From the IMG/VR virus record IMGVR_UViG_3300032038_000006: 39,828 bases of DNA, one strand, 5' to 3'. The notes below the pieces were generated by a model. The model was not told the DNA's origin, searched no databases, and saw only the letters and a list, made by a program, of their open reading frames with translations. Made by a program: the position numbers and the translations under genes. This document shows, in pieces, positions 3 to 39,680 of the stretch (position 1 is its first letter; each line of letters begins with the position of its first letter). Source of the stretch: a virus. Its lineage: Duplodnaviria; Heunggongvirae; Uroviricota; Caudoviricetes.

Positions 3-2828
3 ACAACATCTTCTTGTGAATTTTATACTACAGATACAACATAGGTAATAACAAGTGGTTTCAGAAATGGAGTTACTCCTTATTAGATAATTACTGATAG
101 TTATATTATAACAAATGTAACAAGCACTACTGTATAGGATTTAACAGACTTTTTAAATAGTGCTACTGGTACTATTACTAAAGCAGACCTTTAGGCAGAA
201 TTTCCTGATATACAGGATTACGCTCTTGGCGGAATGTTAGTATATTCAGTTTATAATGGACAGAATTATTACTATGCTAAAGAGAATATGCTTGCTTTAA
301 CTGGAATTACTTAGTATGACCCAGATAATGTAGTTCCAAATAGCTTCATTAAAACAACAGATAATGTAAACGCAGAATAGGTTTCTTGTTATGACATAAG
401 AACAGTATTAGAGACTGGAAGTGGAGCAATAACATTCGACCCTAACGGATACACTCTATATTCTACTGGTGGAACATATTGGTTAACTAAAGAAGAAACA
501 TCAGAAACAGAAGATGTTACAACAACTGGCGTTTCTACTTCAGATGTAGGTATATTCATTAACAATAAACTTGTAGAATAGACTTCCATTACTGATGAAG
601 ATTTATCTAACATTAGAAATGGTAATTATCAGGAATATGATACCTCATTTGAAGTTGTAACTAATACAGGCGGATATAGTGAGGGCGGCCTTCCTGCAAT
701 TATTAATGCTGCAAAAGAAGTTATTAAGGCGGCACATTCAATAGATAGTTCATTAACTTATTCACACGGTTATAATTATAACATTAATATAAATGGAGTT
801 TCAACACCTTTTAGACCAGACTGCTCTGGTTATATGGAGGCTGTTGTTCACGCTCTTGGTTATGACGTAGGCAACTTCTGGGCCGGCGGCACAGCAAGCC
901 GTGTTGATATATCAAAAAATGGTATAAGCTGCGTAGACGGCACTGGAACTAAAGATTGGTTATTAACATATGATGCAACTTAGGTTAGCAATGCGATAAA
1001 TAATCCTCAAATGGGTGATATATTTATTACTGAAGGACATATGGGTATGTTTGTATACAAAAGTGGTACAAGTCCTCTTGGATTTGACTTCGGTGGAACA
1101 GATAATGCTTAGGCTTCATATGAATTTGCAGTTGCAATTGATAATACTGGTCTTAATTAGGCTATGGCAGACGGAAAAGGATACTGGACAGTTCCGGGTA
1201 GTGGCTATGGAACAGTATGCGGATTACTTCGCTTTATGAAGGGCGGAACATCAGGTGCAACAGTTACTTCTCCATTTACATCAAGTAATTTCTATGTAAT
1301 TGGCGATTCATTAACATATGGTATTAGCACATCTGATATAGCAAATAAGGGTAATTTTAAAGGAATTGTAGGAGCAAATTTCCAAACTCCTCCTTCTTAG
1401 TGGTCAACAGGAAATATTTCATCCGCCACAGAAATTGCTTTTGCTATGGGACGTAATTGCATAACAGATAGTGCTTCTCAATATGCTACTTTTATTCAAA
1501 GCTTTTTATCTGCTAAGAATATGAGTTCAGTGAAAAAAGTATATTTAATTCCAGTTATAAGTCCTGATGATGTTTCTTCTGCGGATGCTTAGCTTATATC
1601 TGCATTTAATAGTAATCTTTCAAGTGTTGATATTAATGGAATAGATGTAATAGCTTGTACTGAATTGGAAAGCCAGTTAACTGGATTACCAGGAGGCGGC
1701 GATGGAATACATCTTAACGCAGAAGGATATAAACAAGCTGGTACAAATATTGTTAATTACTTTACACAAGCATATGGTTCTAATAATACTTCTTCTTATA
1801 CAATAACAAGAAATGTATCTGGTGCAATTAACACAATTCTTAGTGGTTCAGAAAGACTATTTTCAATAGCTCTTGGTGGAGAAAAAGATGGAAAGACTGT
1901 TTATAATAACTTACTTACTATCTTAAAGAATGGTGTCCTTTATATGGGTGGAGAAATCAAAGACTATAATGGTAGAGACTTATCTCTTAAGAGCTTCGAG
2001 TATATGCCAGATGAAATTAGTATTAAAGATGCTCCTATTATTCTTACTAATGATGGTAATGTATGGATGGACTTCAATAGAATATATGCAATAAAGAATG
2101 ATGGTTAGTATACAGGATTAAGCCTTATGGATTGTCTTGTTGGTGCATCAGGTGGAGATATTTCTCAGCCTGGCTCTGAAGGTGGCTCCATTAATAGAAA
2201 TACTAATGTGCCTGAAGAGTTCTATACTGTAGACTTTACTGATGAAAATACTTATCATTTCTTAGGTACAAATGGAGTTCACGATGAGGCTTGGGCTAAA
2301 AAAGCTATGCGTTGTTTAGCTATGGGTGAAGTTGGCGTTCGTGCTGATGATGATAGTGCTCATAGTCTATCTTAGAGCGGATTGCTTATTTATCCTTTCT
2401 TGGTACGTTCAAGATGTCTTGCTTATTATCATACAGTTCCAGCTTCTCAATATCAAGAAAACGGATTATTATATTACACATTTACACACGCTGGATTCTC
2501 CAATAACCATTGGAGCGTTGACCATTCATTACCATCTGGATATACAATTGATGATGATAACTTCTATGGTGCATTAACTCAATGTAATCCTGGTTATGAG
2601 ATGAATGAATTGGCTTCTTCAATAGCTGCCGCAGCGCCTGGCATGAATTATGGTTGGTCTGGATATGGATATAATAATACAGAATCTTCACAAGAAAGTA
2701 TTACAGCAGGATTACAAAATGGAACACTTGTGCCTCGTGGATATGACGGCGGTGCAGTTGCATAGAATAAGGATAATTTAGTTGGCGCATATGGTAATAC
2801 AACATATCACGCAAGTTTAAGTTTATAA
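3..2828 (+). CDS. Large tail-associated/virion protein, 5'-truncated by the window, with NlpC/P60 peptidase, SGNH/GDSL hydrolase and possible SleB-like C-terminal domains (15 in-frame TAG read as Gln)
   Basis: One frame interrupted only by TAG from base 3 to TAA 2826-2828; it joins track ORFs 1164, 1665, 2127 and 2382. Motifs RPDCSGY (813-833) and PQMGDIFITEGHMGMF (about 1005-1052) fit NlpC/P60; VIGDSLT and DGIHLNAEGY fit SGNH. Rich in Thr/Ser/Gly/Asn. Confidence 0.8.
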
Positions 2829-2840
2829 GTAGGTGATTAA

Positions 2841-3218
2841 ATGTTGATAAAAAGAGAAAAGATACCAATGATAAAAAATTTAATAGAGAACCTCAAATTA
2901 AAGAGGTTCTCTATCCAAACTCAATATAAGTTTTTAAAGATTAAAAAAGCTATTGATACTGAACAGGAAATCTATGAAGAATAGCTTAGATTGCTTGATG
3001 ATTATATGGAGAAAGATGCTAATGGAAATGTCGTCGTAAATGAGGACGGCGGCGCAAAGATAAAAGAAGGATGCCTTGAAAAATGTTAGCAGATTGTTTA
3101 TGAATTAAATAAAATGCAAATTCAAGTTCCCGATATTTATCTCTCTCTTGAAGAGCTTGAACCATTAGGATTGACTTTTGATGAGTTAGAGTTATTAGAG
3201 GTCTTTATAAAAATGTAA
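2841..3218 (+). CDS. Hypothetical protein, 125 aa (2 TAG), of the type often found after phage tail genes
   Basis: AGGTGA RBS, ATG 2841, MLIKREKIPMIKNL...LELLEVFIKM, TAA 3216-3218 just before a terminator. Missing from the ORF track. Confidence 0.75.
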
Positions 3219-3221
3219 AAG

Positions 3222-3253
3222 AAAAGAGGTAGGAGAAATCCTACCTCTTTTTT
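3222..3253. terminator. Bidirectional intrinsic terminator between the convergent structural and replication modules
   Basis: AAAAGAGGTAGGA-GAAA-TCCTACCTCTTTTTT: perfect stem with A/T tracts on both sides. Confidence 0.9.
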
Positions 3254-3254
3254 A

Positions 3255-3992
3255 TTAAAATTCAATTATCTCATTTGCTTTCTAATCATGTGCCGCCCAG
3301 CGACCAATTAATATAGCATCTGCTTCATCCTAACTAACGCTAATATCATAAATTGATTTAACTCTTAGCTAAGCACTTTTCTTCTGGTCAGTTCTGTTAT
3401 TACCCTTTACCTGAGAATGATGTCTCCAAGTTGCAGGGGCAGCGATTTTATATAAAATGCCATTTTCATAACAATAGTTTTTAAGGACTCCTTGTAAGTG
3501 AGCGAGCTTTTTAAATGTTGTAACCATTTCAATGACTTCCTATGGGTTCTTCTTATATGTCTATAACTAAATATCCTCAAAGACTACCTTATCGGGCTTC
3601 CATTTAGCAATCATAGAAACTACCCACTATTTTGTCTAAGCTATACGCTCTGTGCTATGTGCGCCATCAGATGTCCAATGTCCATATTTAATCATTTTAT
3701 CTCCGTCATATACAGACCAACCAGATGTAATTGAAGCTTGGTCAAAAGCAAGTATTCTAAAACCTGTTTTCTTAACAGCTATATTATCCGTATGGTAATA
3801 TTTATTCTCCTTACAAATTGGGCATTCATAGGTGCCGCGGCGCCATTTCTCATAGGATACATAGTTCAAGTGTCCTTCAGGACATTTCAACTCTAAATCT
3901 GTTTTTAGATTAACGTAGTCGGTTGACATTAATTGCCAACCGCTACTTTCTATATCCTATTTTATATCTTCATACTTAAGTTTTCCTGCCAC
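3255..3992 (-). CDS. RuvC-like Holliday junction resolvase with N-terminal Zn-binding domain, 245 aa (9 TAG)
   Basis: GTG 3992 to TAA 3255. CPEGH...CPIC; RILAFDQASITSGWS, VVFEDI*L*, S*DEADAILIG are RuvC-fold acidic motifs. The later catalytic motifs lie downstream of several TAGs. Confidence 0.85.
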
Positions 3993-5774: not shown

Positions 5775-6699
5775 GATTTTGACGTGTTGCCGTTTTAGGA
5801 TTTTGTTTGAGAAGTAATCTCAATCCAGATGGTAGGGCGGCGAGTTCTTTTTGAGTTATTTTAGAAGATTGGTAAAATGTTGCGAATGAGTCCTTAGCAC
5901 TATTATTTTTTGCCCAAACAATAATTTTCTCAGTAAACGGCGAGTATTTTACATTATAAGGAAATCTCAATGCAGCATTATGACCTTTATACCAAATAGC
6001 CATTTTAGCAATTCTCTTTTGATATTGTTCTTCAGTTTCTTTATCAAATTTATCCAGTTTAAAAATAACTGACTCATAATAATCACAGAAGAAATCTTCA
6101 GAACAGTGGAAATTAATCACACAGTTCTTATTAAAAAGTGCTCTGTAACGCATAAAGCTCAAAGCAGTTGCTTCATCATTTAAGATTGGCGTATGCAAAA
6201 AGTTAAAACGTTTATTTTTATGTTCGTCAATAAACTCAAGAGCTCCTTTTACATTGAGAGGGTCTTTATCTGCTATGTAAATGTGCATCGCATCTTTCTT
6301 GAAGTCTACAAAGTTTTCTGTCTCAATTCTTACATAGCTATTATGTTTCATTTTTTCAAATTCTGCCGCAGAAATTCCAAGTTTATTAACCCAAGGGTCA
6401 TATGGAATATAGGAAGGCGGCACTTCAATTTCCGGTGGAAGTTTTTCATTTTTCTTATAAAAACCATAACCAGTAAATTCTTTATTATCTCCGAAAACCT
6501 ATAAAGTCTTTGGAAGTAGTACATTAGGATTTTCTTTGAAATAAATTATCTTTGCAAACTGACTTTCTTCATCAGTCGGCTTCATTAAAACTACTCTATC
6601 ATTTCTTTTATGATAATATGCGTAGTATTGCATTAATTCAAGATTGGGCACCGCACGTCCACGGTGCCACAAATCTATATCATATAAACCGATAATCAT
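5752..6699 (-). CDS. Hypothetical protein, 315 aa (1 TAG); N-terminus resembles phage radical-SAM proteins but lacks CxxxCxxC
   Basis: Track ORFs 6499-6699 and 5752-6423 are in frame and joined across TAG 6499-6501. MIIGLYDIDL...PNLELMQYYAYYHKRND...TGYGFY...LPPEIE...PSYIPY. Confidence 0.7.
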
Positions 6700-9600
6700 T
6701 ATTCCTCTACCTCTGGTCTTTCAGTTAATGACTCTAAGATAAATCCTTTCTCGTCCATTTTGATTATCTTTTCAAATATATCAAATTTAGTATTCTTATA
6801 CTTCTTTGGAATAAATGTATCATCACGTCTTATACCTGTTATAATAAGTTTATTACCACGACTGAACCAAGACTTTTCAACTACGTGCTTTACACCATCT
6901 GTGCCGCGCTCAGAAATTTGCTTATCCCAAGCGGCGAACTGGTTCTTCCAAACCTTAACAGTTACAACACCAGATGGAGTTAATAACATTACTGAACTCT
7001 TATTCTTATCCTTATCAATTACTGTTCCTGCAATACGATATATCTTAAACATCTTGATTTCTGAACCGTCTTTTGTGGTGAAGCAACGGTCTACTTCTGG
7101 CTCAGGAGAAAGTTCATTGAAATCCGCGATACTATATATATCGTCTTTCAGATTAGCAAGCGGATGTTCGTGATAGTAGAAACCTAAACTATCCATTTCC
7201 CAATCAGCCACTGAACCCTTACCATACTTATCCCATACCTCTTGAACAAGGCGGCGATTAAGTTCATTAAGAATATCCTGCTGATTTTTCTTCATCCAAT
7301 CTCTTACTGGGTCCATGCCTTTCTTATAGATTGACTCCCAAGTAGACATTTTAATCTTGCCCTTCGGTCCATCATTTGTTACGACAATTTCTTCTATCTT
7401 ATTTGTATCATAATTTGCTTCGAAGAATGGCATTGCAATTTCATCAAGATAGTAGTAAGTTCCGTCCTTAGAAACCTTGATATATTTATTAAAATTGAAC
7501 AATCTCTTTTCATAATCTAACTCTTCCGGTATCATATTCTGAGCTATAAGCATCTGCATATTCTGAAGAGTTATTCTCTTTTTCTGGTCTGCTATACTGT
7601 TAATGTAGTTAGTCATTGCTTCAACTCTGTCTCCGCAAAGTTCATCGAAAGCTCCTGCCTTTATAAGTGAGAACATTTGCAGCTTATTTACCTTAACCTT
7701 TGATAAGAAATCTTCAATGCTTGTATAAGGACGTTTATTGAAAATCTCATAAACGAGTTGAGTGCCTATTCTATTGATACCCTTCATACCATAGATGATA
7801 GCATTACGCTTTAACTCAGGCTTAAAAATAAGACCAGATTCGTTTATATCAGGTGGCAATACTGTGATACCTTTTACCTTAGATTCTCCTATGGCGGCAC
7901 TTATTTTACCATAGTTTACGCTCTTATTCTTTTTAGTTGTTGTGTCTGTCTCTTCAGCGTCTGTATCAACATCGTCTGTATCCAATAAGTCTGCACCGCC
8001 AGCATTAACGATTAAGCAAGCACAGTTCCAATAGATAGCGGGATAATTTGTTGCTAAATATAATGTTTGAATACCAACGAATGAATATGCAAGTGAGTGA
8101 GGAAGTGAGAATGAGTAACCCATCTGAGGACCCATTGTAGTTTCCCAAACGTAGTCACCAAAATTCTTATTCGGACAAGCTTCGACGAACTTATCGTGAA
8201 GTGCAGGAATTTCTTCCATATGCTTTTTCGCAACAGTTTTTCTTGCCGCGTTAGCTTCTTTCAATGAGAAGTGTGCAATCTTCTCGTCCATACAAATCTC
8301 CATTAGGTCCTCCTGAAGTGCAGGAACACCAAAACGAGGTAAGTAATATGGTTCAAGAATTGCTATCTCGCTTTCACTAAGTCCTCTATCTCTTGCCTCT
8401 TTATACCATTGACCAATATCTTGCTTAAGGCGGCAATATCTATCGAGAGGTCTTTCTTTTCCTCTTTCTCCCATAAGTCTCATTATCGCATTTGCTGAAG
8501 TCATTTCAGTTGGGTTCTGGGGCTTAACCTGCTTTGCAGTTGCAAGACCAACACCTGTACTGAACTGGAATACATCAAGAACAGTTCCTTGTCCAAGAGC
8601 ATTCCACATTCTCTTATCTTCAAGATTTAATACTGATGGGTGGAGATACTTATCGTAAATCTTTCTTAATGATAAGTCTTTTTCAACAATGCCGTCCTTC
8701 TGCATAAGTTCGATACAAGTTGTTATCTTATCACAAATTTCAGTTACAAGGAAGTCATACTTAACATCGCCCATCGCTTCAGCTTCGTGAAGTGAGAACT
8801 GAGTTGTAAGGTCTCCGTTAGGACTTCTCATTATCGCACCAGTATCACAAGGATTTGTGTTATAAAGAATAACACCAGAAGCGTGCTGACCTCTTTTATT
8901 AACGAGTCCTTCAATTGACTCAATGATTTCAAGAAGACCAGGGTACTTCTCTACTTCAGCGATAAATGCTCCAATAGGAGCTCTACCCTTTTCAGGATTA
9001 CCATAAACGACATCATGAATTGACCACAAGAAACCACGCTCTTGTGGAATAAGACCACTAAGATATTGAGTAGTTTCAACTTCAAGTCCATTAGGATATG
9101 CTTCTGAACGATAACCACGTCCTGCCGCGGCGATTGCTGAACGAGTTCCTTCTGTACCAAAAGTACAAACCTGAATAACATTTAATTCGCCACGTTCTTT
9201 ACGAATTGCTTCAAAGATTTTCTTACGCTTTGAAGGAGAAAGGTCAATATCAATATCGGGCAACTCAACACGTTCTTTATTAAGGAAACGCCAATACTTA
9301 AGTCCCCACTTTAATGGGTCAAGCTGAGTAATACCGAGTAAGTAGTTTGAAAGGAAACATACTGCTGAACCACGTCCTGGGCCTACGATTGAACCGCAAT
9401 CCCAAAACAAATTAATAAAGTGTTGGAATGTATTGAAATACTTAAACAAACAATCATTAAGCTTTTCGCCAATTGTCTTAATTACATCAGCTTCTATTTC
9501 AAGTCTATCAAGATATTCTACGTTATATAAATCTTTTTCCTTCAAAGCATTTATACATTCATTTACCCAATATCTTTCTTGCTTATCGAGGCTGCTCATT

Positions 9601-10625
9601 AATGAAGTAAGAGTTGGACAATGCTGCATGAAATCAATACCATAATTATATACAGCAGGATAATCTTTTACTTCAACCTCTGGAATAATTGATGTATGTT
9701 CAAGACTAAAGCTCTCAATCTTATCATAAATTTCCATTGAGTTCACACACATCTGACCGAAGTCCATTTCTGAAAAAGCAACTTGAAGATTTCCAAATGC
9801 TTCTTCATTATCCATCATATGAGCGTCAAAGTAGAACTCATCAACCTCACGGTCGCCTTCCTTTGAATTAAGGTAAGCCTTGTGAAGTGGACGCTCTGCC
9901 GCAGTAAGATAGTGCGCGTCTGAACCGATTACCATTCTTACTCTATATGCATCTGCTATTGAAGCAATTCTCTTATTGAATTTAATCTGGTCTTTCGACT
10001 GACCGGCGGCGACCTCAATGTAGAAATCATTTCCAAATAGGTCTAGATTCCATCTAATGAAGGCATCTATATCCTGCTTGCAACGAATAATTTCTTCCAT
10101 ATCGCCGTGGTCTTCAGCTTTTACCAATTGAAGAACTCTTCCTCCAAGCTGTCCGCCAATACAGGCAGTTGTAGCAATAAGAGAGTTAGGATACTTCTTA
10201 ACTATTGCTTCAAGTTCCTTCTTTTCTGTTGGAACTCTTGTCATGCCGCGAGAGGTAAAACTGTGATACCAAGCGGTAGAACTTAACTCTCTGATTGCCT
10301 TATGTCCCTCTGCATTTTTTGCAATTAAGATATAGTGCCAGTATCTTTCAATGTTTGTTCTGTCATCAACGAGATAAATCTCATTGCCGCACGCACACTT
10401 GAAATCTTCAGGTATTTCTCCCTTTTCTTTTAACTTCTTTTCTGTCTATAACCATTTTAAATGACCGCTGACACATTCGTGGTCAGTCAATGCAATACCC
10501 TTCATTCCAAGACGATGTGCTGTCTTAATCATATCTGGTATCTTATTGATTGAGTCAATTAAACGAATATTACTGTACTCACTATGAGAGTGGGTATCAA
10601 AACGAGGTATATCATTTAAGCTCAT
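6699..10625 (-). CDS. dnaE: DNA polymerase III alpha subunit (family C), 1308 aa (1 TAG, codon 60)
   Basis: PHP motifs HSHSEYS and IALTDHE lie upstream of TAG 10446-10448; GPGRGSA, PDIDID, HASG, KYDFL and an OB-fold follow. GGAGG RBS before ATG 10625. Confidence 0.96.
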
Positions 10626-12433: not shown

Positions 12434-12822
12434 TATAAAACCTCCATTACTTTATGTAATTTAAAATTATAACAAACCAATTTGGTATTGTTCTTCTTAC
12501 AAAGTTTAAAATTTTGTGCTGTGCCGCGGCTCCTTCCGTCCCAAAAACATAAGCACATTCTATCTTCAAACAGGCTCAAATAATTGTGCATATCTGCATT
12601 ACGAATAAAACCTGCCGATTTACCATAAACACTCCATCTGGCTGGAAATACTTTAATTGGAATATTATTTTCTTTAGCATATTTTTCTGCAAGTGAGTCG
12701 GCGCCTCTTGCGCCGCCACTCACAATTTTATCTATATGATATTTATTATGGGTATAGTCCATAACCTGTTTAAATTCATCGTAATCACAATAATCACGGC
12801 TCCCTGCTACAAGAAGTACCAT
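12433..12822 (-). CDS. SLOG-family (YspA/DUF2493-like) protein
   Basis: LVAGSRDY, IVSGGARGADSLAEKYA, AGFIRN, FWDGRSRGT. Confidence 0.85.
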   Translation of the reverse strand: MVLLVAGSRDYCDYDEFKQVMDYTHNKYHIDKIVSGGARGADSLAEKYAKENNIPIKVFPARWSVYGKSAGFIRNADMHNYLSLFEDRMCLCFWDGRSRGTAQNFKLCKKNNTKLVCYNFKLHKVMEVL

Positions 12823-14621
12823 TAAAAGTCCTCCTCACTACACTCCTTAATTTCCATTTCATCAAGTAAAATCTGTGGGGTTGACTTGCCGCCCCAATTA
12901 TTTATGTTACCGCGGCCAGCAATTGTAATATTTATCTTGCCGCTCTTCAAGAACAATTCATCAAGTAAAGCCTTAGCCTTAAACTTAACGTATGTTATTC
13001 CATTGAAAGTGAACTTTAATGTATCCTTATAAGAGCCAATTGCTTGGATGTCCTTTACATCAAGTGTAATATCCTTTACAATGATAATAGGCTCATCATT
13101 CTGCTGACCCCAAAGAGAACGTCCTCTTTCAAGGTCTGTAATCATATCAGCAAGATATGAACAATTGCCTTGAACTACGAAATCAGCTTCATAGTACCCT
13201 TCATTAAAGTTAATATCTTTCAGTTTCTCATTTGCATATGCAGTAAGTTTATCAACATTTGACTGCTTAATACTGAAACCTGCGGCATTACCATGTCCTT
13301 CTACATAATCCATAAGACCACTTTCAAGAAGGAAAGCTCTGAAGTCCTTTAATTCTGACTCACCGCGGCCTCTAATTGAGCCCTTTAAATATCCGTCAGG
13401 GCTTATTCTTCCCAACATAACAGGCTTCTTATGTGCAGCTGCAACGTTCATAGCACAAAGACCAGTTAATGTTGTTGAAACATTTAAGTCATCTGCATTG
13501 AGAATAAGGATTTTGTTATTATCGAGGTCATTATTAATAATCTGCACATCGAGTAACTGAGTTGCCTTATCCATTTCACGCTTCTGACGAGACTTAGCAT
13601 TTACACAATTTCTTGCACTTTGTGTGGCAAGAGTTTCAGTTTGTCCTTTCTCTCCTCGCTTTGTAGAAGGAACTATCTTCTGTGGCATAAGAAATGCTTC
13701 GAATAATCTCTCCTTTTCTAAGTCAGAACCAACTCTGATTAAAGCGTTTATAAGTGGTGTTATATAGAAAGCAATTCCGATTTGTGTGAGCGGGCCATCT
13801 CCCAATGAATATGACTGCTTAGCAACAAGTTCCTTAAAGAAACCATTGTTTATATGAGAAAGTCCTTCTTCGCAGAACCAACGATTTTCAAGAGTATTCA
13901 TATTCATCATATCACTTATTTCTCCAAGTGCTACGAGGTCAATATAATCCTGAATATGAGGTTCCCAAGTTTCTGCTTCATTTATTCCATCTTCACCCAT
14001 AGTAGAAATTAAATCACTTTCAAAAGCGTGTTCAAAATATTCAAGGAATTTATACGCAACTCCTACACCACTTAAAGACTTATTCTCATAATTCTTTGAA
14101 AGCTGATTATTAATGACGATTGCATTTTCGCTATAATGGTCAGCTTCGTGGTGGTCAAGTACAAGAATATCATATCCCATATCCTTTAATATCTTATGTT
14201 CCTCATAGTCATTACTTGAACTATCGGGGAGTATGATTAAGTCACAAATCTTTTCCTTTGTGAACATATCCATAAGAGTACGAAGTCCGTGCTCCTTTCC
14301 TTCTGGAACATGATAGTCAATTGAAATCTAATACTTAACCCCGTAGGTGTTCATTAAGAAACAATATACTAAGGTGGCACTTGTAAATCCATCAACGTCT
14401 GAGTCAACGCATATGAATATCTTGCTACCATTACATATATGCTTCTTAAGTAACTCATAACCTTCCTATATATTATCCAAGTCTGTTGAGGGAAGTTCAT
14501 TTTCCCAGCTTGGATGGAAGAATAAGGTGGGGTTCTCACCAAAATTCATATTTCTATCTGCAAGTAATTCAGATAAGAAGTCATGAGTTATATCTTTACT
14601 TGTCTTTCTTATATACTTCAT
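12822..14621 (-). CDS. recJ: RecJ-like DHH ssDNA exonuclease, 599 aa (2 TAG)
   Basis: Motif I DSDVDG lies between the two TAGs; LPDS, LDHH, DLVALGEISD and EGHGNAAG follow. GGAGG RBS. Confidence 0.92.
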
Positions 14622-14632
14622 TCAAATCCTCC

Positions 14633-15703
14633 TTAATTTAGCCAAATCGGGCGTTTCATAATTTCCTCAAACGCGGTCTTGCCTAAATCAGTAGGACTAT
14701 CTTTCGCACCGAGGATATTCTTATAGTCAATAACAAATCCCATTCTACACTTATATACAAATCTTTCACATAACTTCTTCAGTTTATTGTAATGTTTATC
14801 CAGCTCCTCCCAGTTAATAACTGAAGGACTGTCAAAAGCTACGATTACTCTTTCAACACCGAGGTCATATAATAATTGCATTTGATAATATGAAATTGAA
14901 CTACCACATACTGCAACTGCAATATTATTTTCACGTCCGTACATAGTTTCATATTGAAGAACTGATTTCTCAGCTTCAAATATAATTGCCATTTTCTTCT
15001 TTCGGATATTCTCTTTATTCATATTCAAGCCGTAAAGATTATAACCGAGAGGATGAGCATACATTTTTCCCTCTATTGATACCGGCATATATTTACCATA
15101 TACCAAATCTTCATCATTGAGGGCGCGGCCTCTTATACCGATTAACTCATCATTTTCATCGTAATGTGGTATAATTATTTTATTATGAATAACATCATAT
15201 AGAATGTGAAATACTTTCATAGCTTCTTCGCTAATACCGTCATTCAACCACTCTATAGTTGCATAGAAACTGTATATATTTAATAAACTTTTCTTAATAG
15301 GTTTTATTTCAACGATAGTTTCTTGTCTTGTATATCTATCTTCAAGACTTTTATATTTAGAGCCAAACCCATCTTGGAATTGATGAAAGCTGATACCGTC
15401 AACTATTTTTAATACAATATCTTTATAGAAATCGTATTCAATTCCAAGAAGTTCATAACGCTTTTCAAAAAGCTGATAGATGTTAAAATTCTCTCCGCAA
15501 TCTGTATAGCAATGAAACTTATGATTACGCTTATAGTAATACAATTTCATTTTTGCTTCGGAAGCTTCCTCGTTATGACAGATAGTCGGAAAGATTATAT
15601 AATCATTTTTTTCTTCATATCTGTCAGCGCCGAGGCCAGTTACCAGCTCAATGATTCTTTCTGGAGTTAGCTCCTGTTCAACTTTCTTTAAATCAATTCT
15701 CAT
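14633..15703 (-). CDS. dnaG: DNA primase (Zn-binding plus TOPRIM)
   Basis: TICH...CYTDC, IIIPH...GIRGR, FEAEKS, VAFD; lies between helicase and RecJ. Confidence 0.88.
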   Translation of the reverse strand: MRIDLKKVEQELTPERIIELVTGLGADRYEEKNDYIIFPTICHNEEASEAKMKLYYYKRNHKFHCYTDCGENFNIYQLFEKRYELLGIEYDFYKDIVLKIVDGISFHQFQDGFGSKYKSLEDRYTRQETIVEIKPIKKSLLNIYSFYATIEWLNDGISEEAMKVFHILYDVIHNKIIIPHYDENDELIGIRGRALNDEDLVYGKYMPVSIEGKMYAHPLGYNLYGLNMNKENIRKKKMAIIFEAEKSVLQYETMYGRENNIAVAVCGSSISYYQMQLLYDLGVERVIVAFDSPSVINWEELDKHYNKLKKLCERFVYKCRMGFVIDYKNILGAKDSPTDLGKTAFEEIMKRPIWLN

Positions 15704-17394
15704 AATAAATCATCGAAGTCTAAATTCTTCAACCTTTCTTTAGTTTCCTTTACGTCACCAAATGCTTCGGTGATTGAGTCTGTTACTGTCTTTGGCATTT
15801 GTGCTTCAAGATTAGCTAACAACTCATCTGCCATTTCATCTGTTAATACGCCATCGTTATAAAATTCTTCCATTTCCCTTCTCTTATTCATATCAACAGA
15901 TACAAAATTAACGATTTGGAAATCTTGAATAGGCTTATAGTCCGGAGTTGTTACAAACAAATCAACTGTTCTTAATGTTCCCAAATCTACAGCTGACCAA
16001 ATACTTATCATAGTCCAACGTCCACGACGATTCTTAAACACGTCTGTAATAGCATTTGGCTTGAAGTTATAACGTTTTTCAAAATCAGCAACAAGCTGGA
16101 GTTCTTCTGGACTTGGTCGTCTACGTATCGCGGCAAAGTCAGCAAGGTCGGCAATCGCCTTAGAACCTCGAATGTTTCTAAAGTCTTTAAATCCTCCCTT
16201 TGGGTCATCGTCTCCACTTAACTGCGTAGCTGACATTATGAAAGCATCCAGCTCAACAGCTAAATTCTTAATTGCTGTTGTTAAGAGTCTTAAACATACA
16301 TCTTCTCTTAACTTTAAATCCCTATACTCATTGAGCATTGCAGGAGAAGAGAAGATATAGTCATAAAAGAAGTTCTCTACGTTATACTGTAAACTATATC
16401 TTCTGAACAGATTCTTGATAACTGAAGCACAAGGGTCTGGAATACGAGCAAATAGCATATAGTCCTTATAACGTTCCATAATATCTATTGCCTTCATAAT
16501 TCTATCCATATGCTCTTCTTTATAAGTACCATACAAGAACATATCTTCATTATATCCTGTAAGATACGCAAGAATCATTGTTTGAATTTCTGCTGGGTCT
16601 TGCTCTGTCATTACATACAAAACCTTCTCTGGCTCACCAGTATAAACCCATTTCTGATACTTAGTATCATATCTGACTGGATAAGCTATTTGACAAGCAT
16701 CGCCAACCATAGAACGAGTTTTACCAACACCAGAACCTGCTGAACGAAGATATAACTTTCCTTTTCTGCCACCGCGGCACACAGTATTGAATATTTCTCC
16801 CTGAAGATGGACACCAATTTCAGGAGTCTCTTTAAGGTTCTTAATCAATTCTCTAATACCTGTGGCGGCATTACTTTCTTCAACAACGCTATTAATAACA
16901 TATTTATTTTCCAAATCTGCGAGTTCTCCTCGAAGACTATTAAATATGTCAGTAGCGGTCATTTTTTCAAAACGTTCATTGATTTCTGCATATTTCTCAT
17001 TCAACGGGTCTTCACAATAGAATGGAGAAATATCTCTGCCGTTCTTCTATAAATCTCTAAGAAGATTTATCTTTTTGAGTTTATTGTAATAAAGCTGAAA
17101 GTTTGCGGGGTCTGCTAAATCTTCACAATCTTGAATAAAAGCTAATCCGTTATTCTTTTCGAGAAGATTTTTCGCAACCTCATTTGTCTATAAATAAGTA
17201 TCAACGTCTATCGTATGTATTCTTTCTGCGCCGCCCGCAAACAAATTATAGATTGCTGAAAATATCATTTTATCAAGTTGCTGACTAAAATCTGTCGGCT
17301 CAAGCTGATATTTATCGACATCACTTAAAAGCTCAGGGCGGCACATCAAACTGCCGAGAATTTGAATAATTGTTCTTCTGTCAACCTAAATCAC
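15700..17394 (-). CDS. dnaB: DnaB-like replicative helicase, 564 aa (TAG at codons 3, 69, 116)
   Basis: SAGSGVGKT, MTEQ, FFYDY, SATQL, RGSKAIAD, KNRRG; GTG 17394 after GGAG. Confidence 0.88.
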
Positions 17395-17398
17395 TATA

Positions 17399-18109: not shown

Positions 18110-18140
18110 TTCTTCACCCTTTTCTTTTAATTCTATAAAT

Positions 18141-18169
18141 ATTATAACATTATTTGGTTAAAAAGTCAA
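18141..18169 (-). promoter_or_regulatory. SigA-type promoter
   Basis: TTGACT-N17-TATAAT with TG extended -10. Confidence 0.85.
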
Positions 18170-18198: not shown

Positions 18199-18200
18199 CC

Positions 18201-22418: not shown

Positions 22419-24805
22419 TCCTATCCCCTCACTAAATCTGAAGCTATGTCGCCTTCATCAATGTTTATGGCTTTTACACCAGTAGCATTACGAGTGAGCT
22501 CTCTTAACTCAGAAGTTGATATTTTTATGTTCTTTCGTTTTACTATAATTATTATATCACTTTCTTCGTTTAAAGTCAAGAATTTGACTATTTTATCTCC
22601 GTCTCTTGTGTCAGAAATCTTCTTACCCTTGATAGGGCGGCCACAAACTGGGAACTCGCTCATAGAAGCTTTCTTAATCAAGCCACGTTCAGAAAGTGTA
22701 ATCATATACTTATCCTTTTCGTCGATTATTTTTGCGTCAATTACATAGTCATCGTCATTAAGCTTAATAGCCTTAACACCTGCTGTTGCTCTTCCTATTG
22801 CATTTATATCTTCTGTATTTATTTTAACAAAATTTCCATTATTTGTCAAGATTCCGACTTGTTCGTTCTTCATAAAGAGAACATTGACAACTTCATCGCC
22901 GTCTTTAAGATTGATTGCCTTAAGAGCCTTGCCTCTCTTAAAGTTATACTCCTCGCCCGCAGTTTTCTTAATCATACCGTTCTTAGTTACGAAGACGTAA
23001 TATTCAATACCATGTCTACGATTTACTGAGGTAATAGTTGTAGGCTTTTCATCAGGTTTGAAGTCAAATAACTGTGCTACATTTACTTTAGAATTGATAG
23101 GTAAATCATCAATAGATAAAGCATATGCCTGACCGAGATTAGAGAATATCATTAATGAGCTAAAGTTGTCATCATTAATGGTCTTGACAATCGCTTCATT
23201 ATCTGCCATTTTAATCTTAGAACCCTTGCCACCGCGGCGCGTTTTCATAAGAGTAGAACTTTCTACGGTATAAATGTTGCCAAGATTAGTATAGTATATA
23301 AGAAGTTCCTTCTTTTCAATAGGTTCTGCATCTTCCTTATCCTCATCACAATCGAGGTTAAGAACAGTAGTTCTACGAGGGTCTCCCCACTTCTTATCAA
23401 TTCTATCGAGTTCTGCAATAAAAGCTGCCTTGAAAGTAGCTTCATCATTTACAAGCGTATCGAGACCTTCAGCTTCTACTCTTAACTTTTCAAGTTCCTT
23501 TTCAATCTTAATATGTTCCAACTTCATTAAGCTTCTGAGTTTAAGTTCAATGATAGCCTTAGATTGCTCTTCATTAAGACCATACTTCTCTTCAAAAGTT
23601 TTTATGAGTGTGGCCTCAGATTCTGCTGACTTAATGAGTTGAACTACCTCATCAATATTAGCAATAGCGATAAGATAACCTTCCTTAATGTTTATCGCTT
23701 TCTTAACCTTGTTATAATCAAAGATATAAGAATGCTTTAAACAGCCCATAGCATGGTCAAGATATGCCAACATCATTTCCTTTAAGCCATACTGCTTTGG
23801 CTTTATACCATTTTCAAGCATAAGCTGACAAATAGTAAATGAAGACTGGAGAGATGTTTCCTTATAAAGCTGACGAACTAACTGCTTAACATTAGTTCCC
23901 TTATTTAAGGTAATTACAATCTTAGTACCATACTTACCGCAAGATTTATCGGTGCCATCATAGAAGCTCTTGATACCAAGTAACTTGCCTTCAGCTATTG
24001 CTTCTTCAATTTGCTTTGTAATTCTTCCAGTATAAACTTGATAAGGTACTTGCTGAATTTCAAGTTCGTTCTTTGTTTCATCATATTCAATAACCGCTCT
24101 TAACTTTACTGCCTTGCCGCGGCCTGTACGTAGTGATTCTTTTACTGCTTCACCATTTATAATTGTAGCTCCAGTAGGAAAGTCTGGTGCAATATAAATC
24201 TCATCATAATCTGCATCTCTGTTATTAACCAATATCTTCAAAGAGTTAATAGCCTCAGAAAGATTAAAACAAGGAATACTACTTGCACAACCAACACCAA
24301 TACCGGTATTACCATTTACGAAGTTAGGGAATAAAGTTGGTAATACAGAGGGGTATTTATCTTCACCAGAATAGTTAAGCTTCCATTCAAGAACACTATC
24401 CTTTTTAATGAGCTTTGTAAATTCATTTGCAATTTCTGAACTACGAAGTTCAAGATAACGTGGCGCCGCATGGTCCTTACCAGCTCTCATAGAGCCTACA
24501 TTTCCCTTTGGGTCTTCAAGACAATATCTCATAGAGAATGGTTTCGCAAATCTTACAATATTGTCCCAAATACCAGCGTCACCATGAGGATTCCAGTGCA
24601 TTACTGGTCCATAGATGTATGTACCTTTCTTTCTATTTTTATCAAAAGTGTTCTTTTCAAGATACTGTGACCAAAGAATATATCTACCACCAGTCTTTAA
24701 ACAGTCACGAGCATCAGGTAATGCTCTTGTCTGAATAACATAAGCGCTGAAAGGAAGATAAGCTTCTGGTACAGCGTCTCTGATTTCTTTAGAAATTATC
24801 TTCAT
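22415..24805 (-). CDS. gyrA: Type IIA topoisomerase subunit A (GyrA-like, with beta-pinwheel CTD)
   Basis: RALPDARD, PHGD, AAPRY (catalytic Tyr), PDFPTG, GyrA-box-like TRRGGKG, CTD repeats. TAG 22421-22423 is followed by GAA TGA, which overlaps the next ATG. Confidence 0.92.
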
Positions 24806-24824
24806 TTTCTCACTCCTTTTCTAT

Positions 24825-24879
24825 ATTATAACATACTTTATTTAAAAAATCAAATAAAGGAGAAGTTATCTTCTCCCTT
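24825..24879 (-). promoter_or_regulatory. Terminator-like hairpin plus SigA-type promoter between gyrB and gyrA
   Basis: GGAGAAG...CTTCTCC hairpin (about 24857-24879), then TTGATT-N17-TATAAT. Confidence 0.7.
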
Positions 24880-26743
24880 ATTCTCCATCAACCATAGAAA
24901 AATCAACATGGCTGAAAATGTAATCTGTACGCTCTTCATTCTCCTTACCAAGAAGAACGTTAAGGATGCGAGCTGCCTCCTCAGCATCTTCAATAGTAAA
25001 CTGAAGAAGTCTTGCATTTTCACCATAAGCTGCAAGTGCGAATACATCAGGGTCCATTTCACCAAGTCCTTTATTACGAGTATATGCTGCACCAGGATGC
25101 TTTGCTACTATTTGTTCGAGCTCTTCATCATCATATGCAAACACTAACTCTTTACCAATAGTGACTTCGTAAAGTGGGAACTGTGCCCAATATAACTTAC
25201 CTGCCTGTATAACTTCTGGCATAAGTACGTAGAATAATACAAGGAGCAAGCATACAATATCGAAACCGTCGGGGTCAGCATCTGCTGCAATAGCGACTTT
25301 ACCATAACGAAGTTTCTTTAGATTTACCTTATCCAAGATTCCACAACCAAGAGCCTTAGCTATATCTTGAACCTCTTGATTTTCAAGTACCTCATCAAGT
25401 GCATTTTTCAATGCATTAATAACCTTACCACGAACTGGTATCGCGGCAACATATTCACTGTCACGAGAATTTGTGAAAGAACCAAGCGCAGAATCACCCT
25501 CACAGATGTAGATGATTGAATTTTCATTGTGATTTCTACAATCAAGAAGCTTATCAACCATTACCGATTTCTTCTTAGTTTCTTTCTCAATTTCCTTGCC
25601 AGCATTAAGAACCTTCTGACGCTCTCTTTCAGCGGCGCGGTCTGCTTTATCAAGTTTGGTCAAAAGCTCTACAACCTTATTGAAGTCATCTGGACGGGCC
25701 ATTTGGAACTCCTTAAGACAAGCAGATATAGCTGCTGATGTTGCAGTACCAGCTTCAGGGTTTTCAAGTGAGTCCTTCTGCTGGTTGGACCACTGACCAA
25801 CTTTAACCTTAACAGAGATAAAGCCGTCAAGAAGATTTCTTATCTGCTCACCTTCAAACTTAGTCTTTGCGAGTGAATTAAAGGTTCTTGTAAGAGAAGA
25901 CTTAAACATACTCATAAATTTACCGCCGTTCGGCACATAAAGTGAGTTTGCATATCCTCTTAAATTACCCTTCTTTGAAACCCACTGTAAAGCAAATTCA
26001 ACTTTACAATCGGGTGTCTCATAGTAATATGAGAATGGACGAGATAAAGCATTATTATTGCTAAGTCCATCAATAAGACCGTTCTTAGAATAGAACTTCT
26101 TTTCAACGCCGTCAACAATAAGAATGAAAGTTAATCCCTTTGAGAACAAGCTCATATTAGTGAGCATTGCTTCAAACGCAGGAATATCAATGAATACATC
26201 TCCATATACTCTTGCATCAGGCTTATATGTAATAATAGTACCAGTATCTTTTGCCTTACCAACAATCTGAACGTCACTTAAAGGATGAGCTCCTTCTGCG
26301 TCAGACTCGTATCTCTGCTTGTAAATATTGCCGTCTCTATGAACTTCAACTTCAAGCCACTCGGCAGTATGGCAGACAATCTTATTACCTTCACCATTGA
26401 TACCAACGGCAGAAGAATAAGCTCCTTCCATATGCTTACCGCCGCTGTGAGGGATAAGAAATGCCGCAGTAAGAGAGTTGATACCGTCGTCACGCTTACC
26501 GACAGGAATACCTCTCGCATTATCTTCACAAGTTATAACTCTTGCGATTGTATCAATAGTTACTTTACAGTATGGATTTACAGGCTGATATACTTCGTAT
26601 TCATCTTGTACGTTTACTACCAACTCTCTTAAACCAAGGTTAATAGCTTTCTGCATATCACCGCAAAGATACATACCAATCTTATCTCTAAACGCTCTAC
26701 CAGCACTTAGAGAGACTATATCTTTTACGCCATAATCACTCAT
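24878..26743 (-). CDS. gyrB: Type IIA topoisomerase subunit B (GyrB/ParE-like)
   Basis: ELVVNVQDE, DNARGIP, HSGGK, EGDSA, PVRGK, DADPDG, KGLGEM. Confidence 0.93.
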   Translation of the reverse strand: MSDYGVKDIVSLSAGRAFRDKIGMYLCGDMQKAINLGLRELVVNVQDEYEVYQPVNPYCKVTIDTIARVITCEDNARGIPVGKRDDGINSLTAAFLIPHSGGKHMEGAYSSAVGINGEGNKIVCHTAEWLEVEVHRDGNIYKQRYESDAEGAHPLSDVQIVGKAKDTGTIITYKPDARVYGDVFIDIPAFEAMLTNMSLFSKGLTFILIVDGVEKKFYSKNGLIDGLSNNNALSRPFSYYYETPDCKVEFALQWVSKKGNLRGYANSLYVPNGGKFMSMFKSSLTRTFNSLAKTKFEGEQIRNLLDGFISVKVKVGQWSNQQKDSLENPEAGTATSAAISACLKEFQMARPDDFNKVVELLTKLDKADRAAERERQKVLNAGKEIEKETKKKSVMVDKLLDCRNHNENSIIYICEGDSALGSFTNSRDSEYVAAIPVRGKVINALKNALDEVLENQEVQDIAKALGCGILDKVNLKKLRYGKVAIAADADPDGFDIVCLLLVLFYVLMPEVIQAGKLYWAQFPLYEVTIGKELVFAYDDEELEQIVAKHPGAAYTRNKGLGEMDPDVFALAAYGENARLLQFTIEDAEEAARILNVLLGKENEERTDYIFSHVDFSMVDGE

Positions 26744-31164: not shown

Positions 31165-31638
31165 TTATTTGACGTCCCAATTCATCATTTCTTCATATAG
31201 CTCATGGGCAAATGAATTGCCGCCGATTGAACTATATGCTTCGTATAAAGAACAAAGGTCATCTTTTGTTCTGAGGTCAAGGGCTTTTTCATCTTTGTGT
31301 GCATAATAAATTTGAGTAATTGAATGTCTTAATTCAGATTTATTTATATTACGAGTTTCTTCTCTGTAATCAGTAATCTTTTCATTCATATCCTCAAATT
31401 TCTAATTCATTTCTGTCTTCATATCTTCCACACATTTCTTGATGTCTTTCCCGAAGTCTGTGAAAGTTTCGATTGCTGTGTCGTTCTTTTCTTTTTCGCG
31501 CTGTAGTTCGTCTTTTAGTTCCAAGTCTGCCTAATCAGGCTCGTGCTTGGCTCGAATTACATCGACAATAACTTTTCCGACTGCGCCTACTAAACCACCT
31601 AATCCAGCAAAAATAGCTGCTATTAATACTTCGCTCAT
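31165..31638 (-). CDS. Membrane-anchored coiled-coil protein, holin-like phage family, 157 aa (2 TAG)
   Basis: N-terminal TM segment VLIAAIFAGLGGLVGAVG; C-terminal LYEAYSSIGGNS motif. Confidence 0.65.
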
Positions 31639-32048
31639 TTTCTCACCCCTTGTCGTTTTAAATCATCTATATGATATTTGCTTTTAACCTAATAAGAGGG
31701 GTCAGATAAAACCTTTTTTAGGGTTAAATCTTCTAAATCCCAATATGGAACTCGAATAAGAGGAATTTTGTGCATTAAGCAATAGCTATTTTTTCTTCTA
31801 TCCCATTCTTGCTATTTTTTAAAACCAGCAAGATTTTTATGGAAATGCGGAGTATATTGAAAATGTTGTATTCCGTCATATTCTACCAGACAACATATTT
31901 TATTATTACGATATAAAGCAAAATCAAAACGAAGTAATGTTTGTCCTTTTCCGTGTAAATCCTCAAAAGACACTTCTCGCTCAAAATGTATCCCGCCGCG
32001 GCGGAACAAGTTAATTAACTTTTGTTCCCCTTTAGAAATCTGATTCAC
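31635..32048 (-). CDS. PD-(D/E)xK / Vsr-like endonuclease, about 137 aa (2 TAG)
   Basis: SKGE, LRFDF, VEYDGIQHF, D..KNSYC, LIRVPYW; TGA overlaps the next ATG; start codon uncertain. Confidence 0.75.
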
Positions 32049-37661: not shown

Positions 37662-37945
37662 TGGCACAGTATGCTTGTGTTAAAATTACTGCTTAGGCAG
37701 GCGAGAATATTGTTCCTTTACTTTTTAAGGAATTGACTGGAACTGTTCCTCCAGGTCAATAGTGCAAAATTCAGTTTATTGCCTTCGAAGAATCAGCCGG
37801 AGAAGAGCTGACAATTAATGGCGTTCCAAATATTGTTCCATCTACTGGACAATTCATTACCCCTTATGATGGAGCAAACCATATGATGATACATTCAGTT
37901 ACTTTTAAAGCAGGATGTACTAAGAAAATATGGTTCATATATTAA
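37661..37945 (+). CDS. Hypothetical beta-rich protein, 94 aa (2 TAG)
   Basis: GGAGG RBS; TAATG coupling. Missing from the ORF track. Confidence 0.65.
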
Positions 37946-37960
37946 TGGGAGGTGAGATAA

Positions 37961-39265
37961 ATGAGTTTTAATCCTTTCGTTAATGGTGGCGGTGGAACGT
38001 CATCTGAAGACAAAGTTGCAAGAGCTGAGATTGCTGCTATTAAAGACGGAGAAAACCTTGACAGCTTTAGTGATGTTGAAACTGCTCTCAGTGATAAGGT
38101 TGACAAGGAAACAGGCAAGGGACTTTCAACGAATGACTATACAACAGGCGAAAAGACAAAGCTCGCTGGTATTGCCGAGGGTGCGGAAGTCAACGAAATA
38201 GAGGGCATAAAAGTTAATAATACAACTGTAAATCCTGATGTCAATAAGGTTGTAAATATTACCGTTCCTACAACAGCGGTGGACGTATCAGCTCTCCCCA
38301 ACACGACTAAGTATGCGGCAGCTCTTAGCCTTACAATTAACAGTTCGACGTTTGTTATGACAGGTCAACTTAAAGACCAGAATGGAGATAACTTAGGGAC
38401 AACGCAAACAATAGATTTGCCTTTAGAAAGTGTTGTTGTAGATGGCTCTTATGATAATTAGACAAAGAAAGTCGTTCTTACTTTACAAAATGGTAATACA
38501 GTCGAGTTTAGTGTTGCCGACCTTGTTTCTGGTTTATAGACAGAGCTTTCAGAAAGTAATAAGTTGAATCCAGCATATATCAACTATGATAGTACACATA
38601 GAGCAGTTAGCGATGCTGAAAAATCCTCATGGAATGGCAAGCAGAACGCTCTTAGCTCAACACAGCTCTCTGCTGTAGACAGCGGCATTGACAGTCTTAA
38701 GGTAACTCAGATAACTACTAATACAGACAGTATTTCCGAACAAAGGGTGGCGCTGGATGAGGACAGAGCAGCTCTTGTGGAGATTGTGGATTCCGGAGCG
38801 AAGAATTTTTTACAGAACGACGCTACTTCTCAGACTATTTCTGGCGTCACATTTACGGTTAATGCCGATAAAAGCATTACACTTAGTGGCACAGCGAGAG
38901 CCAACATTACATCATTCTTTATCTGTCGAGCAATACCTGCATTAACAGGAAATATGGTTCTTTCAGGTTGTCCAGCAGGTGGTTCATCTGATACATATAG
39001 ACTTGATATACTCGACGGTACTGCTTCTGGTACTGTACGATTCGTAGATACAGGAGAAGGCATGGATGTTGACTGGAGCTTAATCACTACGGGGACATAT
39101 ACGACAAGAATTCGTATTCAGTCAGGAACAACAGTTGATGGATTGATATTTAAACCAATGCTCTGCACTAAAGCAGCATGGGACATTTCACATCAGTACG
39201 TCCCGCATAGGCCAAGCTATGACGAGCTTATAGCACGGATAGAAGCGCTGGAAGGAGGGGTGTAA
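37961..39265 (+). CDS. Tail-fibre/virion accessory-like protein, 434 aa (2 TAG)
   Basis: Track ORFs 37961-38461 and 38564-39265 are in frame. KVDKETGKGLSTNDYTTGEKTKLAGI and SGVTFTVNADKSITLSGTA are typical phage fibre motifs. Confidence 0.72.
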
Positions 39266-39266
39266 A

Positions 39267-39680
39267 ATGGACAAGCTCATACAGACGACAGCGGCAGTTA
39301 TAGCCGCTGTCTGCGGATTCCTCTGGGGACAGGCGGACGGGCTGCTGTACGCTCTCATAGCCTTCATGGCGATAGACTACATAAGCGGTGTCATAGTCGC
39401 CGTAGTGCGGCACGAACTCAGCTCAGAGGTTGGCTTCAAGGGCATCGCAAAGAAAGTACTTATACTGGCGCTTGTGGCTGTAGGCCACATCCTTGATGTC
39501 CATGTTCTCGGCGGCGGAGCGGTCTGCCGGTCGGCAGTCATAGGATTTTACCTCGCAAATGAGGGGATAAGTATTCTGGAAAATGCAGGGGAGCTGGGAC
39601 TTCCGCTCCCGAAAAAGCTCATAGCTGTGCTTAAACAGCTCAAAGATAAGGAGGATAATGATGATGAAAAACGGGATTGA
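39267..39680 (+). CDS. Phage holin (toxin secretion/phage lysis holin family)
   Basis: DYISG, SSEVGFKGIAKK, ANEGISILEN...G.P.P; three hydrophobic segments. Confidence 0.92.
   Translation: MDKLIQTTAAVIAAVCGFLWGQADGLLYALIAFMAIDYISGVIVAVVRHELSSEVGFKGIAKKVLILALVAVGHILDVHVLGGGAVCRSAVIGFYLANEGISILENAGELGLPLPKKLIAVLKQLKDKEDNDDEKRD

Follow-up and report, generated by a model that had tools for sequence, protein, structure and literature searches.

The GC-only pentamer GCCGC/GCGGC is over-represented across a phage family and may act as a Chi-like signal facing DNA ends

The Caudoviricetes record IMGVR_UViG_3300032038_000006 of IMG/VR (39,828 nucleotides; this whole stretch is called the window) was found to contain 90 copies of the word GCCGC/GCGGC, with 38 GCCGC and 52 GCGGC on the + strand (685..39515). 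The window has a GC content of 36.3%, and the density of the word is 2.26 per kb. GCCGC is the reverse complement of GCGGC, so that 'GCSGC' denotes a single duplex site that can be read either way. The excess of the word, roughly fourfold over what the genes demand, is real and sharp; it extends over the whole family, under weak selection or drive. In several relatives the strand of the word switches beside the packaging genes, and the signal therefore likely protects or repairs phage DNA ends. A Chi-like signal that faces DNA ends is the most likely explanation, at a little under an even chance.

Over-representation of the word in the window

The number of GCCGC/GCGGC sites expected under Markov models of order 0, 1 and 2 was 15.7, 15.9 and 22.0, respectively. 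The word was the highest-ranked 5-mer under all three orders, with z 4.9 under the maximal-order model. A preliminary description of the window had reported this over-representation from about 85 copies in a rough manual count, which the full count bears out; its expectation of about 10 sites was too low. The nested double sites described there were found in five copies, two of which lie one base away from the positions first given (3834 and 31995 are correct; Table 1).

The synonymous codons of the 46 code-15 genes of the window were shuffled in 500 rounds, either globally or per gene. The genes contained 88 sites against 23.6 (global) and 26.2 (per gene) expected (z 14-15), and the word was again the top 5-mer; the excess thus outlasts the synonymous shuffle, which the preliminary description had named as its decisive check. 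Each coding orientation exceeded the shuffle (42 vs 8.9 and 46 vs 14.7). The word was present in 36 of 65 Ala-Ala pairs (13.3 expected), 19 of 65 Gly-Gly pairs (4.1) and 6 of 28 Arg-Arg pairs (0.2), and 25 of the 41 CGC codons in the window were found inside it, in agreement with the rare-codon use described earlier. GCWGC was observed 39 times under the same shuffle, with 60 expected. The word in codon pairs other than Ala-Ala reached 48 vs 9.6 expected, so that its excess is no side effect of GCWGC avoidance. The noncoding DNA of six genomes contained 104 copies vs about 8 expected, a figure which hairpins and tRNAs may inflate. Restriction-like words were shunned in the window (GATC 0, CTAG 4, CATG strongly depleted), a trait that the preliminary description had missed, and an excess of GACC was set aside as probable closure from GATC avoidance.

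Anatomy and turnover of the word

In a pool of the window and its relatives G002-G004 and C65, the word-completing base was used 2.93 times more than expected, with 2.4-3.9 at each of the five positions. The one-mismatch word classes had observed/expected ratios (O/E) of 0.98-1.13, except for GCCGG (2.05). In six genomes the word base was favoured over its transition neighbours (odds 3.5-9.5) and its transversion neighbours (2.7-21). An A preceding the word was disfavoured on either strand (0.34 and 0.41; controls 0.98 and 0.82) and so was a T following it (0.34 and 0.24; controls 1.15 and 0.59), from which the two-fold symmetric element B-GC-S-GC-V follows. No even spacing per strand was found in 18 tests on six genomes (lowest p 0.033, coefficient of variation 0.84-1.21), and no periodicity of sites was seen in these tests. 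Overlapping sites were favoured like isolated ones (O/E 3.45 vs 2.84) with no diminishing return, as for probabilistic recognition.

The gain and loss of the word were counted in six close-strain pairs with 79 differences, against control changes of like codon box, transition and following base. Loss was 0.37x and gain 2.38x of the matched controls, both ratios coming from the same count; weak selection with S 1.86 predicts 0.34x and 2.20x, respectively. Transversion loss was 0.009 vs 0.045. A model with a creation hotspot only predicts 107 half-differences and one with protection only predicts 17, against 39.5 observed, and a mutation hotspot alone does not fit. The rates fit weak selection or a conversion-type drive with S about 1.9; conversion drive is mathematically like selection, and these data cannot separate the two. 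In eight alignments with at least 10 sites, 31-54% of the sites were kept at 73-84% identity and the density was unchanged, so the individual copies are dispensable. The codon shuffle, neighbour odds, one-mismatch words and strain gain and loss all agree with the DNA-level selection or drive proposed at the outset.

Distribution among phages and hosts

The word was enriched in all 40 loci fetched as relatives of the polymerase (order-1 O/E 1.98-10.05). A second set was built by nuclease alignment, with 80 loci fetched and 67 of at least 8 kb profiled. The 30 nearest of these had O/E 1.96-3.87, with the word as the top word in 21, many being near-duplicates, and the word-enriched ones span codes 11, 15 and 4. 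The remaining 37 mostly favoured GCGCG, GGCGC or GGCCG, and other lineages favoured GCCGG (G001), GCGGR or AGCGC. Sister lineages prefer GCGC, GCCGGC or GCGGR in place of GCSGC; GCCGGC was enriched 8-14x in G001-G003, and GCGC in three sister groups showed the same flank profile (A 0.30-0.36, C 2.15-3.36). The word thus follows the phage lineage across codes 11, 15 and 4 and across GATC avoidance from 0 to 0.9.

The excess was absent from the SPbeta, Staphylococcus SPbeta-like and Enterococcus H1 stretches. The 49-kb stretch of SPbeta (85-134 kb, L252) contained GCGGC 9 vs 6.8 and GCCGC 1 vs 7.1 expected. An attempted Chi control with the Staphylococcus SPbeta-like, Enterococcus H1 and SPO1 stretches gave no strong word. 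In the SPbeta stretch, the B. subtilis Chi had lost its reverse orientation and was one-sided for that reason (AGCGG 17 vs 12.9, CCGCT 1 vs 7.0). Bacillus phage SPP1 (L280) had GCGGC at 2.45x as the top strand-specific 5-mer, and its synonymous positions completely lacked GCWGC (0 vs 65 expected).

Phage loci sharing the holin of the window had O/E 0-1.65, all four AT-rich ones avoiding the word, and 9 of 22 Ruminococcus holin loci avoided it. Over 41 host genomes TGCCGC was present at 0.2-2.5x its reversed control; the hosts were less enriched for the word than the phage. The genome G021:C24 (L176-L195) contained 17 PF00145 matches and a chromosome nearly without GATC, GGCC, GCGC, CGCG and CTAG, with GCNGC avoided. 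No report of a GCGGC/GCCGC excess in phages was found in the full-text literature searched, which covered few subscription journals.

Orientation relative to the terminase gene

A uniform genome-wide polarity of GCGGC was found inconsistent, with four of six genomes pointing one way, and was replaced by a terminase-anchored reading. In the 182.6-kb relative C65, the orientation bias is reversed over the 40 kb that follow the terminase gene. With the terminase at the left, GCGGC was found on the bottom strand just after the terminase and on the top strand later. Five genomes were anchored, post hoc, at the gene before the terminase; with increasing position, a growing fraction of the GCGGC copies was on the strand of the terminase. 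The gradient was found singly in C65 (p 2e-5) and G004 (p 8e-4), and the pooled slope of G001, G002, G004 and C65 was 1.26 (p 8e-7), with p>0.06 for 10 of 10 control words.

For three held-out genomes (G197, G198 and G200) the prediction was written first, and raw hand counts were made in 20-kb stretches with no codon null. The ratio of GCGGC on the terL strand to the other strand was 9:19 in the first and 50:19 in the late stretch of G197 (hand chi-square about 13.6), and 14:20 and 35:15 in G198 (about 6.9), so the predicted switch was seen in two of the three. In each of the four stretches compared in G197 and G198, most genes were on the strand of terL. The window lies mid-map, and GCGGC was favoured on its structural-gene strand (4.43 vs 3.18), as in C65.

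The word as a Chi-like signal

The preliminary description had offered a Chi/KOPS-like signal as one analogy; it is the best current reading, from the geometry of the polarity, with a putative reader. The over-representation beyond composition and codon use that is expected of Chi was found. In this reading, a weak per-site bias for the whole 5-mer would keep about two copies per kb. A host end-processing helicase-nuclease, presumably of the AddAB type, would read GCGGC and, on meeting it from its 3' side, would stop degradation and start recombination. The free ends of the phage would lie beside the terminase genes, so that GCGGC would face each end with its 3' side, the geometry of the active Chi sites of phage LLS, and the host would be a Ruminococcus. 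An all-GC word is rare by chance at 29-38% GC, so selection would raise it to the density seen in hosts. The enrichment of both orientations would follow from ends that are circularly permuted or made by recombination.

AddB-like genes (TIGR02773) were found in all five Ruminococcus-genus genomes, below the curated cut-off. Taking the Chi-contact residues of B. subtilis AddB as reference (available text of PMC4614115), the Chi pocket was partly kept, with Q42, F68 and F210 the same and with the changes D41E, T44S, E48D, R70G/S and W73R. In G032, a complete chromosome analysed as 32 stretches of 20 kb, GCGGC was 1.43 on the leading and 1.20 on the lagging strand (z 2.3). The top polar word of G032 was GGGGA, which we take to be KOPS-like.

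Several observations weigh against a Chi-like signal. The gradient was weak in G002 (p 0.09) and absent in G001 (p 0.85) and G003 (p 0.88). Among the held-out genomes, G200 had 22:17 in its first stretch, with no reversal and no late stretch, and G197 and G198 belong to the sub-lineage of C65 (terL identity 85% and 80%, respectively). The polarity is mild, the opposite orientation being still enriched 2-3.6x, and GCGCG of the sister lineage had no consistent polarity in G006 and G008. A reader of single strands would not be expected to favour two-fold-symmetric flanks, and the least favoured flank form was AGCGGC, the one that contains the B. subtilis Chi. On the host side, GCGGC ranked 16 of 1016 for polarity in G032, and G117 showed no GCGGC signal. 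The Ruminococcus-labelled G021 avoided the word (0.36) and has a similar AddB pocket, and in G153 the word was the top 5-mer in a blurred form (1.59 vs neighbours 1.3). Among unrelated phage loci that share the holin (80 fetched, those of at least 9 kb profiled), 0 of 66 had O/E of at least 2. Sak4-like, RecJ and RuvC-like genes are encoded by the phage itself, in contrast to Chi-rich lambdoids, most of which are without a recombination module.

Alternative explanations

It is possible, though unlikely, that a phage-encoded, two-fold-symmetric (dimeric) protein recognises inverted 5'-BGC half-sites set apart by a spacer that differs between lineages (GCGC, GC-S-GC, GC-CG-GC), the sites being selected or driven by biased heteroduplex repair. 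The symmetric flanks of the word, the same profile for GCGC in the sister groups, the GCCGGC excess in G001-G003 and the tracking of phage lineage across genetic codes are consistent with such a reader. So are a conversion drive compatible with the strain gain and loss rates, the weak host skew and the recombination genes of the phage itself. The candidates are the stand-alone Vsr-fold nuclease and the type II topoisomerase of the window (Table 1).

The predicted structure of the nuclease had a predicted local distance difference test score (pLDDT) of 93. Foldseek gave no match at E 0.001, yet a Vsr probability of 1.00. By VIA the model matched Vsr 1CW0 with Z 9.8 (root-mean-square deviation 2.6, 106 aligned), 3R3P with Z 8.8 and a mitoribosomal chain with 10.8. 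The gene was conserved in all complete relatives and single-copy in G001-G004, C65, G005, G006 and G008, and its catalytic E8, D42, H62 and D83 were invariant in nine of nine rows. According to the available text of PMC3239194, the homologous domain of I-Bth0305I dimerises on a pseudopalindrome, an analogy in favour of a symmetric reader. From these models and alignments the nuclease is a candidate reader of the word. The gene has the fold and catalytic residues of the Vsr/EDxHD proteins (1CW0, 3R3P) and differs from them in being a core gene without the DNA-binding N-terminal part, a partner methyltransferase or T-neighbour depletion. Enterococcus phage H1 contains a stand-alone homologue (L464 / OP534061.1 82362-82730) directly after the terminase large subunit, whose place suggests that nucleases of this type may act in packaging, and yet shows no word excess, which counts against the nuclease as reader. 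The topoisomerase was found in word-bearing lineages and was absent from all three word-free outgroup phages; its presence is confounded with host class, and it remains a candidate reader. A symmetric reader also offers no reason for the orientation switch.

It is rather improbable that the word is a replication signal, such as a priming or loading site of the phage primase or helicase. The polarity would then mark leading and lagging strands, the terminus lying beside the terminase and the origin about 30-55 kb further downstream. Unequal replichores fit the orientation geometry equally well, and genes for a primase and a helicase are present in the phage; the density is near 1 per kb per strand, and the word changes with lineage. 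The lack of even spacing, the undiscounted overlapping sites and the symmetric flanks are against this reading.

A HIP-like ratchet, in which a host GCSGC/GCNGC methyltransferase marks the strand, repair copies the word and functionless sites pile up, was judged quite improbable. In the available text of PMC4390886, alternative HIPs are GCsGC (Cyanothece PCC 7822), GCCGGC and GGCGCC, the genome in every case also encoding a methyltransferase, and the ratchet saturates near one site per kb. These words recur in the phage family. The HIP1 analogy of the preliminary description holds for the word, which is that of Cyanothece PCC 7822, and fails on the phage side, where neither a matching methyltransferase nor saturation of spacing was found. 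The bias at all positions fits the ratchet, the word has the form of a GC-rich pseudo-palindrome with symmetric flanks at a density comparable to the 1-2 per kb of HIPs, and C5 methyltransferases were found in three of five Ruminococcus genomes. The random spacing and favoured overlaps disagree with the predicted saturation, and the avoidance of the word in the Ruminococcus and AT-rich holin loci and its lower enrichment in hosts than in the phage also count against it.

A cognate methyltransferase in the same genome was not found in the phage relatives, and a host enzyme may supply it. The C5 methyltransferase family PF00145, a search for which had been proposed earlier, was found in none of 18 related records (4 of them at least 90% complete), and PF01555 (N4-type) in none of five relatives. 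PF00145 was likewise absent from the phage contig C65, with one fragmentary match elsewhere in G153, a further point against the ratchet. In G001, with 145 open reading frames of at least 110 amino acids listed, no base-modification pathway was found among the 90 scanned by Pfam, which left out most replication-block and long structural genes, and only a D12 adenine methyltransferase was present.

It is very improbable that the word is a by-product, be it of T:G repair of the Vsr type, of a context bias of the polymerase or of codon closure where neighbouring restriction sites are avoided, a view largely refuted by the neighbour odds, the one-mismatch classes and the strain dynamics. The apparent GCWGC depletion under the codon shuffle, and closure as the source of the GACC excess and of part of the SPP1 GCGGC excess, are in its favour. 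The excess in pairs other than Ala-Ala and the neutrality of GCWGC away from its centre (1.03) oppose it, and single-cause models miss the observed half-differences. A Vsr-fold nuclease gene is present in the window, and depletion of T-for-C neighbours was not found: the T/A odds were 1.18-1.36 at three testable C positions, 5.3 at a fourth, where GGAGG avoidance confounds them, and 0.43 at another (n=37, p 0.11). The T neighbours of the word are thus not drained, and the Vsr-type drive raised earlier was rejected.

Genes of the window and the probable host

Reading TAG as sense (code 15), another trait missed by the preliminary description, raised the open reading frame cover from 0.76 to 0.95. 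In-frame TAG was found 72 times in 46 genes, replication genes included, and often near gene starts. Code 11 is used by the close relatives L001/L002 (88% polymerase identity), and code 4 apparently by L402. Read under code 15, the window represents the replication arm of a large TAG-recoded phage. A Pfam search of 41 window proteins gave polymerase III alpha, RecJ, DnaB, PhoH, AAA_24, topoisomerase subunits, NrdD, ligase, RNase H and holin, and PHROGs gave a primase and a RuvC-like resolvase. The nearest named polymerases were 38-40% identical (Enterococcus and SPbeta phages). The Sak4-like label in Table 1 was taken from the annotation of SPbeta YorG.

Table 1. Positions of the word and of the main genes in the window
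Feature	Position	Strand	Remark
Dispersed GCCGC/GCGGC, 90 copies	685..39515	both orientations	about 2.3 per kb, random spacing; effective element 5'-B-GC-S-GC-V-3'
Nested double site GCCGCGGC, 1/5	3834..3841	no strand	sequence scan
Nested double site GCCGCGGC, 2/5	9124..9131	no strand	sequence scan
Nested double site GCCGCGGC, 3/5	12523..12530	no strand	sequence scan
Nested double site GCCGCGGC, 4/5	24116..24123	no strand	sequence scan
Nested double site GCCGCGGC, 5/5	31995..32002	no strand	sequence scan
DNA polymerase III alpha, code 15	6699..10625	-	marker for fetching relatives
Replication/recombination block: RecJ-like nuclease, primase, DnaB helicase, PhoH, AAA_24 (Sak4-like), putative single-stranded DNA-binding protein	12822..21436	-	
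Type II topoisomerase subunits A (22415-24805) and B (24878-26743)	22415..26743	-	candidate reader
Stand-alone 137-amino-acid Vsr-fold (EDxHD-type) nuclease, code 15	31635..32048	-	candidate reader; family-conserved
Holin and start of GH25-like lysin	39212..39828	+	97.9% identity to L467

The 315-amino-acid gene directly after the polymerase (5752-6699, -) had no Pfam or PHROG match and was found in the close lineage only (28-35%); its N-terminus presumably resembles phage radical-SAM proteins, without the cysteine motif. Next to the stand-alone nuclease is another EDxHD-type homing endonuclease (32935-33714, -), which is longer and has Cys repeats at its N-terminus. A PTS HPr-like gene (PF00381; 37362-37661, +) was kept in G001-G005 and C65. 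The relative G001 encodes a GH113 glycoside hydrolase, a NADAR domain protein and an adenylosuccinate-synthetase-like protein (L045:13126-14244, L046:11874-12323 and L048:2596-3750, respectively). The holin-lysin cassette was absent from the complete relatives tested, the window holin contains no TAG codon, and L467 is a code-11 phage locus of 49% GC; the cassette is a recent transfer, a lysis-module swap.

The host is probably Ruminococcus. The best genome matches of the holin were mostly Ruminococcus, as were the two best matches of the amidase of a relative, and C65 was binned in G153 of the same genus, co-binning being partly circular evidence. Related sequence was found in bovine gut data, with contigs from four runs across the window. 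No CRISPR spacers against the first 20 kb of the window were identified in 161 genomes. The intergenic stretches 10860-10910 and 18125-18176 match many Ruminococcus genomes; loose ends from other DNA gather there and near 24822-24856, which are probably promoter-like elements.

Significance and comparison with known systems

As a wider reading, we tentatively propose that the genes of a large family of Clostridia-infecting gut phages carry inverted BGC half-sites as a tunable code (GCGC, GCSGC or GCCGGC by lineage), weakly selected and end-oriented, which would either reveal the AddAB Chi words of Clostridia or mark the targets of a domesticated, methyltransferase-independent Vsr-fold nuclease. 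If the word is Chi, phage genomes could read out the Chi sequences of gut Clostridia, with a prediction for Ruminococcus AddAB, and the word density bears on the survival of linear DNA in these fibre degraders, which are hard to engineer. With a phage protein as its reader, the word would instead be a self-mark independent of any methyltransferase. Under both readings, a word that resembles a restriction site has clearly been gained, not lost, and its strength per site was measured.

The SPbeta-family multispecific C5 methyltransferases have GCNGC specificity, and methylation of this type by a phage enzyme had been suggested for the window. The likeness to SPbeta lies in the polymerase (38% identical to YorL) and a similar replication block. 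The difference lies in the missing PF00145 and PF01555 genes of the relatives and in the SPbeta stretch without word excess, and the suggestion found no support.

The phage word is identical to the GCsGC HIP, and the sister phage lineages use GCCGGC and GGCGCC. It differs from HIPs in being clade-wide, not sporadic, and in its orientation switch.

The TAG-recoded Firmicutes gut phages Sapphire and Agate (bioRxiv 10.1101/2021.08.26.457843) resemble this family, by description only, in code 15 with code 11/4 relatives, 115-190 kb genomes and an animal gut source; the available part of the preprint does not mention the GCGGC/GCCGC word.

No Chi sequence of Clostridia was found in the literature searched; that of B. 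subtilis is AGCGG (available text of PMC4614115). The excess of Chi is known in virulent phages, T5- and P1-like phages being examples in the available text of PMC3784561. In the lambdoid E. coli phage LLS the active Chi sites have their 3' side toward the DNA end, and the orientation ratios are 20:3 and 32:0 in LLS and P. aeruginosa MD8, respectively, as far as the available text of PMC12315714 gives them. The GCGGC polarity, in contrast, is about 1.5-3-fold and absent in some relatives. Both orientations enriched, symmetric flanks, own recombination genes and a weak host-chromosome signal also set the word apart from phage Chi. It resembles phage Chi in being a short G/C-rich word, above host density and unevenly spaced, with GCGG common to the B. 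subtilis Chi, and, in several relatives, perhaps in having the 3' side of its G-rich strand toward the presumed end.

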